From: a virus
Lineage: Duplodnaviria > Heunggongvirae > Uroviricota > Caudoviricetes
DNA: 35,714 nucleotides
Strand: one strand, 5' to 3'
Virus record (IMG/VR): IMGVR_UViG_2734482773_000004
The notes below the pieces were generated by a model. It was not told where the DNA came from. It did no database searches and worked only from the letters and a program-made list of their open reading frames with translations. Shown one piece after another: positions 1 to 35,714 of this stretch. Each line of letters begins with the position of its first letter. Positions within the stretch are counted from its first letter, which is position 1. A program made the translations under genes and the position numbers.

Positions 1-318
1 ATGAAAAAGATAGCTGCTATATCATTAATTAGTATTTTTATTATGTCTGGTTGTGCTGTGCATAATGATGAGACAAGTATCGGTAAATTTGGTCTTGCAT
101 ATAAAAGTAATATTCAGCGTAAACTCGATAACCAATACTACACCGAAGCCGAAGCTTCTTTAGCCAGGGGCAGAATATCTGGTGCAGAAAATATAGTAAA
201 AAATGATGCAGCCCATTTCTGTGTTACTCAGGGCAAAAAAATGCAGATAGTTGACCTGAAGACAGAAGGTGCAGGATTACATGGCGTCGCTCGTCTGACA
301 TTCAAATGTGGAGAGTGA
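1..318 (+). CDS. yegR: Small host lipoprotein, 105 aa, YegR-like
   Basis: N-terminal signal peptide with lipobox (IMSGC); AT-rich; lies outside the left att core. The symbol comes from recalled K-12 gene order (yegQ-cyaR-ogrK-yegZ-yegR) and matching length, not from a search. Confidence 0.5.
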   Translation: MKKIAAISLISIFIMSGCAVHNDETSIGKFGLAYKSNIQRKLDNQYYTEAEASLARGRISGAENIVKNDAAHFCVTQGKKMQIVDLKTEGAGLHGVARLTFKCGE

Positions 319-380
319 GAATATTTTTTGGTAAGCGTCAAACATGCGCGTTCTGGTTGTGCTTAGCCGGAACCTGTGCG

Positions 381-413
381 AGCACGATGCCGTTACGTGA
401 AAGGCATCGTGCT
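381..413. other. Hairpin (11-bp stem, 11-nt loop) in host flank, possible terminator or REP-like element
   Basis: agcacgatgcc (381..391) pairs with ggcatcgtgct (403..413); no T-run follows. Confidence 0.25.
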
Positions 414-428
414 ATGAAGGGAGATTCT

Positions 429-460
429 ATCGATGTGGTCAATGGAAGACGGTGACCAGG
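429..460. repeat. Relic of a P2-like phage arm in the host flank
   Basis: About 32 bp (tcgatgtggtcaatg-gaagacggtgaccag) closely resemble the arm between ogr and the right att core (34118..34148), at the same side of the core. Confidence 0.45.
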
Positions 461-475
461 GATAGGGCTTATGCA

Positions 476-503
476 TAAAAAATAAGCCCGTGTAAGGGAG
501 ATT
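476..503. repeat. attL: attL core, 28-bp direct repeat
   Basis: taaaaaataagcccgtgtaagggagatt is identical to 34181..34208; lies next to the integrase gene. Confidence 0.85.
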
Positions 504-582
504 TAGGGTGTCAACAGTAGGGGCTTTCAACGGTACAATGCGGGTTTGAGCGGCATAAATTACCACTGAAAGCCCTTAAACG

Positions 583-1596
583 TTACTCTACTGTGGACAC
601 TGTGTGGACACTCTCGGCCTCAGTACCACCTCTTAGCGGATTAAGAGAAATGGCGTCCTGAAGGTACTCTGGCGCAAAATGAGCGTAAACCATCGTTTGC
701 TCAATCCGCGTGTGACCTAGTATCCGTTGTAGCGTAATAATACTTCCTCCATTAATCATGAAATGAGTGGCAAAGCTGTGCCTTAGTGCATGTGTGGCTT
801 GCCCCATTGGCAAATCCGGTTTTATTGCTTTCATTGTTCGTCTGAAGCGAGGGTAATCAGCATCAGGGAATAAAAAACCTCGTTTGTTATCCGCGATCAT
901 TTTGGCAACAGCCTCTGAGATCGGGACGGTGCGTGGTTTGTTTGTTTTCGTTTTAACAAACGTGACGCGGTTATGGATGATATTTTCTGCTTTCAAACGA
1001 GCTGCTTCTCCCCAACGTGCTCCTGTACTCAGGCAAAGAATCGCAATCTTTTTATTGTCGCCGTCAAGTGCTGCAAGCAGTAAGGCAATTTCTTCCTGTG
1101 TGAGATAGCCTGTTTCTGGTTTTTCCTCCTTAAGCCTCTTTGTCCCTCTGATAGGGTGCTCACCAAAGAATAACTCCGCTTCAATCAGGGCTGTAAACAT
1201 GCCGCTAATACATGTTAAATCACGATTGATACTCGAAGGTTTAATACCCTGACTTCTTCGGGTGGCGCAGTACTGGCTGATAAGGGATTTCGTGATTTGA
1301 AATGCGCATGGGTCATTCGTTATTTTTGTGAAGATTTCAATTTTTCCAAGATTAGATTTCCCATGCTCTTCGTGTTTACCCTTTAAATCCCACCAGATCT
1401 GTGTCAGTTCCGACAGACGTCGTTTGTCTGTTGGTTTTGATAGCCATTCTTTATTGTGGTGGTTGTACAACGTGTATTTCTCGAAAGCGACAGCTTCGCT
1501 TTTCTTATCAAACTTCCTACGGATGCGTTTTCCATTACGTCCAGTAGGGCGGATGTCCACTTCATATCGACCATCATCGAGTTTTTTGATTGCCAT
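583..1596 (-). CDS. int: Tyrosine integrase, 337 aa (P2 Int-like)
   Basis: Tyrosine recombinase motifs (TGARWGE, HALRHSFATHF, LGHTRIEQTMVYAHF); adjacent to att core; same length as P2 Int. Confidence 0.93.
   Translation of the reverse strand: MAIKKLDDGRYEVDIRPTGRNGKRIRRKFDKKSEAVAFEKYTLYNHHNKEWLSKPTDKRRLSELTQIWWDLKGKHEEHGKSNLGKIEIFTKITNDPCAFQITKSLISQYCATRRSQGIKPSSINRDLTCISGMFTALIEAELFFGEHPIRGTKRLKEEKPETGYLTQEEIALLLAALDGDNKKIAILCLSTGARWGEAARLKAENIIHNRVTFVKTKTNKPRTVPISEAVAKMIADNKRGFLFPDADYPRFRRTMKAIKPDLPMGQATHALRHSFATHFMINGGSIITLQRILGHTRIEQTMVYAHFAPEYLQDAISLNPLRGGTEAESVHTVSTVE
592..612. promoter_or_regulatory. Putative Int arm-type binding sites, tandem tgtggacact x2
   Basis: Two 10-bp direct repeats with 11-bp period inside the int 3' end; similar TGTGG(A/T)C repeats at 34123..34143 in the other arm. 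Confidence 0.4.
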
Positions 1597-24152: not shown

Positions 24153-24680
24153 ATGCAGCATTTGATAAATATAACGGCAGGTAATCCAAAAACGGTTGAA
24201 CAATATCAATTGACAAAGGATTTTGATGTTGTCTGGTTTTTTACAGAAGATGGTAAGAACTGGTACGAAGAACAAAAGTATTTTGCTGATGACACGATAA
24301 AAATAGCGTACGACAAAGATAATATCATCCGCTATGTGGAAAAGGATGTGACAGCTATCAGACCGGATGGATTAAGTGTGGTTGAAGTGGCGGATATTAC
24401 TGCTAACCGACGGGCGGATATTTCAGGGGGCTGGATGTTTAAGGACGGCAAAGTGATTAAACGCATTTATACGGCAGAGGAATTACAGCAGCAGGCAGAA
24501 ATTCGGAAAGCCAGACTTCTTGCAGATGCTGAATCCGTGATTTTGCCGCTGGAGCGCGCGGTCAGACTGAACATGGCAACAGATGAGGAGCGTAGCCGAC
24601 TGGAAGCATGGGAGCGCTACAGCGTTCTGGTCAGTCGTGTGGATCCTGCAAATCCTGAATGGCCGGAAATGCCGCAATAA
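24153..24680 (+). CDS. G: Tail fibre assembly chaperone G, 175 aa
   Basis: Immediately downstream of H; length as P2 G; AT-rich 5' portion. Confidence 0.85.
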
Positions 24681-33861: not shown

Positions 33862-34080
33862 ATGTTTCATTGTCCTTTATGCCAGCATGCCGCACATGCG
33901 CGTACAAGCCGCTATATCACTGACACGACAAAAGAGCGTTATCATCAGTGCCAGAACGTGAATTGCAGTGCCACGTTCATCACTTATGAGTCGGTACAGC
34001 GATACATCGTGAAGCCGGGAGAAGTCCATGCCGTAAGGCCGCACCCGTTGCCGTCAGGGCAGCAAATTATGTGGATGTAA
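33862..34080 (+). CDS. ogr: Ogr late-gene transcription activator (zinc finger), 72 aa from ATG 33862
   Basis: CPLC...CQNVNC zinc-binding motif; internal start MFHCPLCQ gives the 72-aa P2 Ogr length; last phage gene before attR. Confidence 0.92.
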   Translation: MFHCPLCQHAAHARTSRYITDTTKERYHQCQNVNCSATFITYESVQRYIVKPGEVHAVRPHPLPSGQQIMWM

Positions 34081-34093
34081 TTACAAACAGGAA

Positions 34094-34117
34094 GCCCCTC
34101 AGTCGAGGGGCTTTTTT
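34094..34117 (+). terminator. Rho-independent terminator after ogr
   Basis: gcccctc-agtc-gaggggc hairpin followed by tttttt. Confidence 0.8.
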
Positions 34118-34122
34118 GTCGA

Positions 34123-34143
34123 TGTGGTCAATGTGTGGACGTG
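34123..34143. promoter_or_regulatory. Putative Int arm-type sites in the ogr-side arm (tgtggtcaat / tgtggacgtg)
   Basis: Two TGTGG(A/T)C repeats with 11-bp period, same family as 592..612. Confidence 0.4.
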
Positions 34144-34180
34144 ACCAGAAATAAATCCTTTTATTTCAATTTGTTGTACG

Positions 34181-34208
34181 TAAAAAATAAGCCCGTGTAA
34201 GGGAGATT
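34181..34208. repeat. attR: attR core, 28-bp direct repeat
   Basis: Identical to 476..503; overlaps the 3' terminator of the CyaR sRNA. Confidence 0.85.
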
Positions 34209-34268
34209 ACACAGGCTAAGGAGGTGGTTCCTGGTACAGCTAGCATTTTATGGGTTATGTTTTTCAGC
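34182..34268 (-). ncRNA. cyaR: CyaR (RyeE) CRP-dependent Hfq-binding sRNA, about 87 nt
   Basis: Minus-strand sequence gctgaaaaacauaacccauaaaaugcuagcuguaccaggaaccaccuccuuagccuguguaaucucccuuacacgggcuuauuuuuu matches my recollection of CyaR; terminator stem formed by gccuguguaa and uuacacgggc plus U-run; lies between yegQ and the prophage as in K-12. Confidence 0.75.
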
Positions 34269-34289
34269 GAAACGGATGATAACCTTAAT

Positions 34290-34352: not shown

Positions 34353-35714
34353 TCACTTACCGTGGGGATTACGCGTGGTTTCCCCGGAGAAATTACGCAT
34401 CAGCAGCGCGTAATTGAGCTCAAGATCCTGCGGGACCGGGAGCCACACAGTATAACCATCGCCTGGTGCTATCGGCATAGCTTCGCCTTTGGCGTTTTCC
34501 ATGTGCTCAAGGGTAAAATTAATGTTGCCTTGCGGCGTCATCAGCTCAAGGCTGTCGCCAACGGAGAATTTATTTTTCACCGCTACCGCCGCGAGGTCCC
34601 CCTTGCGCTCACCGGTAAACTCACCAACAAACTGCTGGCGGTCAGAAACTGAATAACCGTATTCGTAGTTCTGATAATCGTCGTGAGTATGACGACGCAG
34701 GAAACCTTCGGTATAGCCACGATGCGCCAGACCTTCCAGAGTTTCCAGCAGGCTGGTATCGAACGGTTTTCCCGCAGCGGCGTCATCGATAGCTTTGCGG
34801 TAAACCTGTGCGGTGCGTGCACAATAGTAGAAAGATTTGGTACGACCTTCGATTTTCAGCGAATGCACGCCCATTTTGGTCAGGCGTTCTACATGGGCGA
34901 TGGCGCGCAGATCTTTCGAGTTCATGATGTAAGTGCCGTGCTCATCTTCAAACGCGGTCATATACTCGCCCGGACGCTGGGCCTCTTCGATCATAAACAC
35001 TTTGTCGGTTGGTGCGCCGATACCCAGCGTCGGCTCAACATTTTGCACCGGAATCGGCTCGTACTTGTGTACGATGTTGCCAACATCATCTTCTTTCCCT
35101 TCCTGGACGTTGTACTCCCAGCGGCAGGCGTTGGTGCAGGTGCCCTGGTTCGGGTCGCGCTTGTTGATATAGCCAGAGAGCAGGCAGCGACCGGAGTAGG
35201 CCATGCACAGCGCGCCGTGAACGAAGATCTCGATCTCCATATCCGGCACCTGATTGCGGATCTCTTCAATCTCTTCCAGCGACAGCTCGCGAGAGAGGAT
35301 CACGCGGGTCAGGCCCATTTGCTGCCAGAATTTCACCGTCGCCCAGTTCACGGCGTTAGCCTGCACCGAAAGGTGGATCGGCATTTCAGGGAAGTGCTCA
35401 CGCACCAGCATAATCAGCCCTGGATCGGACATAATCAGCGCATCCGGCCCCATTTCCACCACCGGTTTCAGGTCACGGATAAAGGTTTTCAGCTTGGCGT
35501 TGTGCGGTGCAATGTTGACCACGACATAAAACTTTTTCCCCAGCGCGTGGGCTTCATTGATGCCGAGCTGAAGATTTTCGTGGTTGAATTCGTTGTTGCG
35601 CACACGCAGGGAATAACGCGGCTGGCCCGCATAAACAGCATCTGCGCCATAAGCGAAAGCGTAACGCATATTTTTCAGCGTTCCCGCCGGGGAAAGGAGT
35701 TCCGGTTTAAACAT
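34353..35714 (-). CDS. yegQ: Peptidase U32-family protein YegQ (tRNA hydroxylation protein TrhP), 453 aa
   Basis: Full-length ORF on the minus strand beyond attR; N-terminus MFKPELLSPAGTLKNMRYAFAYGADAVYAGQPRYSLRVRN matches recalled E. coli YegQ; host-like GC content. Confidence 0.85.
   Translation of the reverse strand: MFKPELLSPAGTLKNMRYAFAYGADAVYAGQPRYSLRVRNNEFNHENLQLGINEAHALGKKFYVVVNIAPHNAKLKTFIRDLKPVVEMGPDALIMSDPGLIMLVREHFPEMPIHLSVQANAVNWATVKFWQQMGLTRVILSRELSLEEIEEIRNQVPDMEIEIFVHGALCMAYSGRCLLSGYINKRDPNQGTCTNACRWEYNVQEGKEDDVGNIVHKYEPIPVQNVEPTLGIGAPTDKVFMIEEAQRPGEYMTAFEDEHGTYIMNSKDLRAIAHVERLTKMGVHSLKIEGRTKSFYYCARTAQVYRKAIDDAAAGKPFDTSLLETLEGLAHRGYTEGFLRRHTHDDYQNYEYGYSVSDRQQFVGEFTGERKGDLAAVAVKNKFSVGDSLELMTPQGNINFTLEHMENAKGEAMPIAPGDGYTVWLPVPQDLELNYALLMRNFSGETTRNPHGK

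Follow-up and report, generated by a model that had tools for sequence, protein, structure and literature searches.

A probable fossil P arm of an old P2-like element in the bacterial flank of the cyaR attachment site of Escherichia coli

A 30-bp sequence lying just outside the left end of a P2-like prophage at the cyaR locus of Escherichia coli is very probably the decayed P arm, that is, the ogr-side Int arm-type site, of a fossil attR left by an old P2-like element, and it probably has no function today. It was analyzed in a window of 35,714 nucleotides, the whole stretch of DNA under study, which runs from the start codon of yegR on the left to that of yegQ/trhP on the right and contains a resident P2-like prophage (table 1). 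We propose that E. coli had an ancestor in which cyaR lay directly beside yegS, and that a P2-like integrating element entered this genome by recombination at the 3′ end of cyaR. Its interior would then have been lost or replaced, leaving an islet of ~0.8-1.1 kb made up, in this order, of a degenerate attL core, a decayed P′ arm, AT-rich DNA, yegR, a spacer, the decayed P arm, and an intact core. Only the core on the right would have stayed perfect, as it provides the terminator and 3′ end of CyaR, a functional sRNA; the other parts would have drifted, and the resident prophage would have integrated into this surviving core. This reading is drawn, at the level of sequence, from the homology of the arms, the insertion relative to outgroups, the pairing of att fossils at the two ends of the islet, and the low conservation of the arm; we infer that the original element was a full prophage.

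Table 1. Features of the window; P2 positions refer to NC_001895
Feature	Position	Strand	P2 position	Remarks
yegR	1-318	+		Orphan lipoprotein gene; E. coli record annotation; within the islet between yegS and cyaR
Host flank	319-476			Between yegR and attL core
Spacer, yegR to fossil arm	319-429	.		Islet DNA; holds hairpin 382-414 and AAGGGAGATT at 417-426
Fossil Int arm-type site (predicted)	430-459	+		Collinear with the P2 "Int, P arm" protein_bind feature
Rest of fossil P arm	460-476	+		IHF-site segment missing; from alignments
attL core of resident prophage, also attB/attR core of fossil	477-503	+	24356-24382 (attP core)	27 bp
P′ (int-side) arm, resident prophage	504-617	+		P2 annotation mapped onto window
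Cox-binding region in P′ arm	~520-593		24399-24472 (Cox sites)	Mapped from P2 annotation
Int arm repeats in P′ arm, TGTGGACA twice	591-617		24470-24496 (Int site, "P′ arm")	Mapped from P2 annotation
int, resident P2-like prophage	583-1596	-		337-aa ORF; position as P2 int
ogr, resident prophage	33862-34080	+		Translation MFHCPLCQ...IMWM*; P2 annotation
ogr-side arm	34081-34181			Between ogr and attR core
ogr/F-operon intrinsic terminator	34091-34114	+	24265-24288 (ogr terminator)	Mapped from P2 annotation
Int P-arm binding site, resident prophage (predicted functional)	34119-34146	+	24293-24320 (Int binding site, "P arm")	Mapped via alignment
IHF site of P arm	34150-34183	+	24324-24357	P2 annotation and alignment; missing from the fossil of the window
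attR core = cyaR 3′ end	34182-34208	+		27 bp
cyaR (RyeE) sRNA gene	34185-34270	-		Rfam RF00112, 100.7 bits, E 3.9e-21, full length
yegQ/trhP	34353-35714	-		E. coli record annotation; anchor of the 80-species comparison

The host copy of the 30-mer (TCGATGTGGTCAATGGAAGACGGTGACCAG) and the phage copy at 34119-34148 (TCGATGTGGTCAATGTGTGGACGTGACCAG) are identical at 24 of 30 positions without gaps, including exact blocks of 15 and 8 nt. The pattern TCGATGTGGTCAATG-N7-GTGACCAG has exactly two matches in the window, which are these two copies, none being expected from 100 shuffles. Local alignment of the flank (319-476) with the ogr-side arm gave a score of 36, which was reached by 0 of 2,000 dinucleotide shuffles (null maximum 27). 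Both copies have the same orientation and lie on the same side of the 27-bp core, at a distance of 17 nt for the host copy on the left versus 33 nt for the phage copy on the right. The first-pass annotation had described about 32 bp immediately left of attL as resembling the ogr-side arm; the resemblance and the side are as it described them, whereas its coordinates were about one base off and the 30-mer does not adjoin attL. It had also recognized the arm-type repeat TGTGGTCA in the flank, and we found this first repeat in both copies (434-441 and 34123-34130). The second repeat reads GGAAGACG in the host versus TGTGGACG in the phage. Compared with the consensus of the P2 arm-type Int repeats, tgTGGaCa (PMC3448106), the host version matches at four of eight positions, so that the host copy does not display the two repeats of a P arm.

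From ogr to the core (34040-34208), the window is 98.2% identical to phage P2, and the Int P-arm site annotated in P2 maps by alignment onto the phage 30-mer. The host flank aligns with the P2 P arm from TCGATG through to the core with a single 16-bp gap. This gap takes out most of the annotated IHF site, and the IHF site of a P arm is thus not found in the host copy; in the same 460-476 region the gap amounts to 20 bp when the flank is compared with a minority E. coli allele described below. The attL core is collinear with the annotated P2 attP core and identical to the attR core at 27 of 27 positions. As Rfam places cyaR on the prophage's right-hand boundary (table 1), the att core is the 3′ end of this sRNA gene, and "cyaR RNA" is listed as a P2-type insertion site for Wphi2 in strain W, "ogr-D′" in K-12, and P2*B in B (E. 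coli W genome paper, PMC3032704, Table 2).

The spacer between yegR and the 30-mer has features of its own. Just 3 nt to the left of the fossil arm, the sequence AAGGGAGATT is the same as the final 10 nt of the att core; it differs among alleles (AAGGAGGATT in K-12, AAGGGGAATT in M160133). An ogr-type terminator whose 3′ half and T-tract have decayed, another core relic, or a chance match may account for it; judged from its alignment, the whole of 415-429 may be such a decayed terminator half. Further left, a conserved hairpin (GAGCACGATGCC...GGCATCGTGCT) has an 11-bp stem, in which one change found in other alleles still pairs, as G-T, and a T-run on neither strand. A terminator scan of window 1-700 detected none, the hairpin included.

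To the outside of E. coli, we compared loci anchored on YegQ in 80 other enterobacterial species. In all 79 aligned loci, the sequence ceases to be homologous to E. coli at the last base of cyaR or no more than ~10 nt from it; the eightieth (L042) has no recognizable core. In 48 of the 80 species yegS begins at most 150 bp from cyaR, typically at 74-117 bp, and cyaR directly beside yegS is the ancestral arrangement. Neither yegR, searched by tblastn, nor the E. coli-type 30-mer was found at any of these 80 yegQ loci. In Escherichia sp. E1V33, the DNA upstream of yegS, ending in ...gatgaaagtcgtgaggc, abuts AAAAAATAAGCCTGCGTAAGGGAGATT; at the equivalent place in E. coli, the homologous ...gatgaaagtcggaggat is followed by AAAAAGTCAGTTCAAGTATGGAGGATT, then by 798 bp, and then by the true core. 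The extra E. coli DNA relative to E1V33 is therefore a 798-bp segment located at the exact end of cyaR and containing the AT-rich DNA, yegR, and the 30-mer. Its absence from the orthologous site, in E1V33 as in the 48 species with yegS close to cyaR, is that expected for the remnant of an integrated element. As two non-coli Escherichia genomes entered the comparison, the insertion is dated loosely.

Because the window begins at the yegR ATG, we took the left edge of the islet from strain STEC719, which matches the flank of the window at 100% identity. In a register fixed beforehand by the outgroup, this far edge is a 27-mer (L002 2674-2700) identical to the core at 18 of 27 positions. Among the 3.4 million 27-mers of the window and all loci, at least 18/27 is reached at a frequency of 3.4e-5, mostly by real cores; leaving aside an ambiguous A-run, the degenerate core retains 13/22, with a frequency of 4.7e-4. 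The DNA inside it resembles P′ arms in a register-preserving manner (anchored p = 0.00075 with a relic of Escherichia albertii and 0.007 with the P′ arm of the window). Free local alignments of the majority-allele left edge to P′ arms reach scores attained by 107 and 643 of 2,000 shuffles and are not significant alone. For the majority allele, to which the flank of the window belongs, the statistical evidence at the left edge is thus modest, and the case rests on the fixed register and on the minority allele. Taken together, the islet is bounded by a direct repeat of the att core, perfect on the right and degenerate on the left, with a P′ arm within the left core and a P arm within the right core (strong in the minority allele, weaker in the majority), as would be left by an integrated element.

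The minority allele was found in 23 of 5,426 complete E. coli genomes, for example RMDEC465 and APEC E19025 (both prophage-occupied) and M160133 (empty site). Its left edge, AAAAAATCAGTTCAAGGATGGGGAATT, leads into a nearly full-length P′ fossil that shares 82.9% identity with window 528-597 across 70 nt (E 3.7e-15); beyond this fossil, both arm repeats survive in decayed form (ACTGTGGATTCAGCGTGGCAGC). The right edge of the allele, TCGATATGGTCAATGGAAGGAGGTAACCAGGTATGAATCCTTCCTTCTGTTTCATTGAATTACGCAT plus the core, carries a full-length P-arm fossil identical to the K-12 ogrK arm and core at 77 of 94 positions. The IHF-site segment, missing from the majority allele, is present in decayed form in the minority allele only. 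The two alleles share derived changes, among them TCAGTTCAAG (left core) and GGAAG (second P-arm repeat), and therefore descend from one event, after which, to judge from the alignments, small lineage-specific deletions removed ~75 bp of the P′ arm and ~20 bp of the P arm. We consider this allele, with both arms nearly full length, the clinching evidence for a relic.

The relic is almost universal in the species. The flank (1-476) is at least 80% covered in 5,385 of the 5,426 genomes and the arm-like segment plus core (405-503) is present in 5,376. A synthetic empty-site junction is contiguous in 4,570 genomes, a number that includes K-12-type genomes in which the pieces are joined across the ogrK remnant. 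STEC719 is such an empty site, with yegR, flank, core, cyaR, and yegQ in a row. The first-pass annotation had proposed that an earlier P2-like element sat at this site, was mostly lost, and left a core into which the present phage integrated; the outgroups without the segment and the paired att fossils agree with it, although the relic is not a strain-level event, being near-universal and carried by empty sites too. It had also considered that empty-site strains with the same 32 bp and no phage history would speak against a relic. Empty-site strains do have this sequence, but they also have a phage history, because the outgroups lack the ~0.8-kb segment and its edges bear a degenerate core with a P′ arm on one side and a P relic with the core on the other. 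The idea of a relic therefore stands.

K-12 combines this fossil with a more recent remnant. From left to right, its locus contains the 30-mer (with one substitution), a truncated attL core, a gene D fragment, ogrK, an undecayed P arm, and an intact attR core. Since the 30-mer lies left of the truncated attL core and the D′-ogrK block has its own P arm to the right, the 30-mer is outside that block. The flank relic is thus distinct from the K-12 ogrK/yegZ remnant, with which the first-pass annotation had linked it. The ogrK-D′ remnant is a second, younger, and separate occupant of the same core, on top of the old relic, and the 30-mer is part of what normally counts as the bacterial arm of the attachment site. 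In K-12, the attL core of the remnant (L001 3477-3496) ends after AAAAAAATAAGCCCGTGTA and is fused directly to the gene D fragment; the deletion that produced the ogrK remnant hence began within the core. A cryptic P2 remnant at cyaR in K-12, comprising ogrK, D′/yegZ, and attR, was reportedly described by Barreiro and Haggard-Ljungquist in 1992.

Other relics were identified at cyaR in related genera. In E. albertii NBRC 107761 (L007 11534-14902), a truncated P arm beside cyaR is followed by ~3.2 kb of other DNA, including IS-like sequences, then by a P′ arm and an attL core, which is near-intact and lies directly against the DNA upstream of yegS; yegR is not found there. This relic is P2-like and independent of the E. 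coli fossil. Citrobacter youngae has ogr together with D′ and int′ fragments at cyaR. At five further loci (L009, L041, L066, L077, and L079), P2-type P arms adjoin cyaR on its downstream side, tblastn detecting no ogr in any of them, and yegS is only 1.7-2.8 kb away in L041, L066, and L077. Arm-only or near arm-only relics thus seem common across the Enterobacteriaceae. The relics at this site always keep the cyaR-proximal end, which is consistent with a protection of the core by selection on the sRNA terminator. In a genome recorded as Enterobacter hormaechei B17-3 (CP169086; L005 9163-11533 and 12091-12990), the yegQ-cyaR side is 98.9% identical to K-12, and this identity runs to the last base of the att core, yegS past the core being only ~70% identical. 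This pattern reflects either a recombination or horizontal transfer breakpoint exactly at the att core, or a mislabeled or hybrid genome.

The interior of the islet is less informative. Searches by tblastx and blastn against the resident prophage revealed no recognizable phage gene in it. YegR homologs bear the precomputed Pfam tag PF27694, and in a direct Pfam scan of YegR nothing reached the gathering score. These homologs are encoded at unrelated loci in non-phage contexts, among them an 81%-identical copy between a glutaminase and a nitroreductase gene in another species and a 51%-identical copy among transposase genes in an Enterobacter; ~450 bp around yegR are homologous at the DNA level to the glutaminase/nitroreductase locus. 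As yegR is an orphan with homologs in non-phage contexts, a phage origin of the interior cannot be demonstrated, and yegR could equally be cargo of the element or have arrived after its decay. We rejected YegR as a phage cargo protein on the basis of phage collections, where its matches are host-flank records only. PHROG 21109 (phrog_21109) matches YegR over its full length and was probably built from host-flank contamination. Likewise, a blastn search of 340-476 for a phage with a better-matching arm returned from the phage collection only two records, ON470606 (vB_EcoM-720R8) and AY639599 ("Phage TP"), both of which contain host flank. The GenBank record ON470606 (L004, "Escherichia phage vB_EcoM-720R8") includes the host genes gatR, yegS, and yegR; host flank appears to have leaked into phage databases.

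Two variants affect this region among E. coli strains. In FDAARGOS_1077 (L086 3940-4020; approximately window 47-362), most of yegR and the proximal flank is deleted between two copies of TCTGGTTGTGCT, and yegR is therefore dispensable in at least one strain. A 170-bp indel just 3′ of yegR (C9, L085 1822-1990; after window 322) is present in C9, 720R8, RMDEC465, and M160133 and missing from the window and from K-12. In another species, a yegR homolog at a different locus is followed by a 110-aa ORF (L090/L092), and the start of this ORF is homologous to part of the indel.

When the STEC719 and M160133 alleles were compared by segment, identity was lowest in the fossil P arm (78.7%) and rose to 82% in the P′ fossil and AT-rich DNA, 85% in the degenerate core, 95% in yegR, and 98-100% in cyaR. 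Both alleles host prophages. The fossil arm most likely has no present function, since it has lost its second Int repeat and, in the allele of the window, its IHF site, and since no other segment has diverged more between the two alleles; we infer that Int no longer binds it productively. Selection might nevertheless have kept the 30-mer as an accessory site, residual Int binding in the B arm tuning integration or excision at the primary P2 site. Indeed, the 15 nt made up of the first arm repeat and its flanks do not differ from the live phage site and are unchanged in 9 of the 10 E. coli alleles sampled, and the sequence is near-universal in the species. However, an attB accessory site under selection should be better conserved than the neighboring neutral DNA, and the fossil arm is the least conserved segment. 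In addition, the second repeat is far from the tgTGGaCa consensus (4/8; PMC3448106), the IHF site has been lost, the alleles differ by 20 bp in their spacing to the core, prophages are found in both alleles, and other species with an armless att core still bear P2-like prophages or relics there. This role is very improbable, and the conserved Int/IHF site that the first-pass annotation had offered as an alternative does not agree with an arm so poorly conserved between alleles. It is also improbable that the surviving TGTGGTCA half-site weakly recruits P2 Int, which would make attB and the attL of every lysogen partly attP-like and bias site choice or depress excision; under such weak recruitment, decay of the arm would have turned a blocked attR back into a usable attB. 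K-12, where a remnant with an intact P arm lies beside the intact core, is reportedly not used by P2 at this site.

The nature of the ancestral element and the direction of transfer can be weighed in the same way. Rather than being a prophage, the ancestor of the islet could have been a small integrative element, or a cassette, that was equipped with P2-type att arms, carried yegR, was mobilized in trans by a P2-like Int, inserted at cyaR, and then decayed. An interior without surviving remnants of phage genes, YegR homologs at unrelated loci, once with flanking transposases, and the ~450-bp yegR module homologous to a non-phage locus elsewhere would fit such an origin. It is nonetheless unlikely, as intermediate stages of prophage decay exist at the same site (D′-ogrK in K-12, ogr/D′/int′ in C. 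youngae, arms and IS-like DNA in E. albertii), a search of the phage collection gave no free element of this kind, and insertion of yegR after decay is equally possible. The reverse transfer, in which a P2 ancestor gained host flank and the phage P arm derives from E. coli DNA, is topologically possible, aberrant excision being expected to place host DNA from the left of attL between ogr and the core. The first-pass annotation had mentioned such a capture. We regard it as highly improbable: the TCGATGTGGTCAATGTGTGGAC arm is found beside cyaR in prophages or relics of C. youngae, Scandinavium, and other genera without the E. coli flank; homology from ogr to the core extends to 95 phage records from Escherichia, Yersinia, Klebsiella, and Salmonella, the E. 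coli-type version of the arm being seen in E. coli only; and capture by a phage cannot account for the degenerate core and P′ fossil found at the opposite end of the islet. Finally, the match is short, and short sequences can resemble each other by chance, but a fortuitous resemblance is hardly conceivable here, as no shuffle out of 100 or of 2,000 reached it, it is collinear with the core, and longer homologous arms exist in the minority allele (E 3.7e-15).

A decayed P arm of a P2-like element has several consequences for the way in which this locus is read. The cyaR site is regarded as the primary P2 attachment site of E. coli, locI. Formally, this primary site appears to be the attR of the fossil, and its "B arm" a dead P arm; the classic P2 site would thus be flanked by a bacterial arm that appears to be dead phage DNA. 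The location of yegR inside an att-bounded islet missing from outgroups implies that it reached E. coli through, or into, an integration hotspot. Three P2-like generations, the near-universal fossil, the K-12 ogrK remnant, and the live prophage, would be layered at the 3′ end of one sRNA gene, where one att core is maintained by selection on the terminator and the remainder is lost to decay; the survival of the ogr side in several genera would be explained in this way. A caution follows: the presence of a sequence in "empty-site" strains is no proof of a non-phage origin, and prophage predictors and phage databases already take in the cyaR flank (phrog_21109, ON470606). Full-text literature searches found no account of an arm-like sequence in the P2 attB flank, a prior mention being possible in subscription-only papers or in the P2 att papers of 1992-93. 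The fossil is a remnant of an ordinary kind, a prophage remnant, but it is unusually old, near-universal, and apparently unreported.

Compared with known systems, the fossil is closest in position to the K-12 remnant, with which it shares the integration site, the phage family, and an ogr-side end kept beside an intact cyaR core. The K-12 remnant is young and lineage-restricted and retains ogr and a D fragment as well as a P arm that has not decayed, whereas the fossil is near-universal in E. coli, without phage genes, heavily decayed, and located left of the truncated attL core of K-12. With the P arm of P2 attP it shares homology, orientation, the side of the core, and an intact first repeat. 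Unlike that arm, it has its second repeat destroyed and its IHF site deleted (in this allele), has no adjoining ogr or terminator, and is not conserved within E. coli. More generally, cis-mobilizable elements and "grounded" prophages have been defined as att-bounded remnants of integrative elements (PMC6379469). Like them, the islet consists of cargo between derivatives of attL and attR, the recombination and structural genes being gone. It differs from cis-mobilizable elements in that its attL (18/27) is too degenerate for mobilization, and attR alone is kept, as this site also serves as the 3′ end of an sRNA gene.
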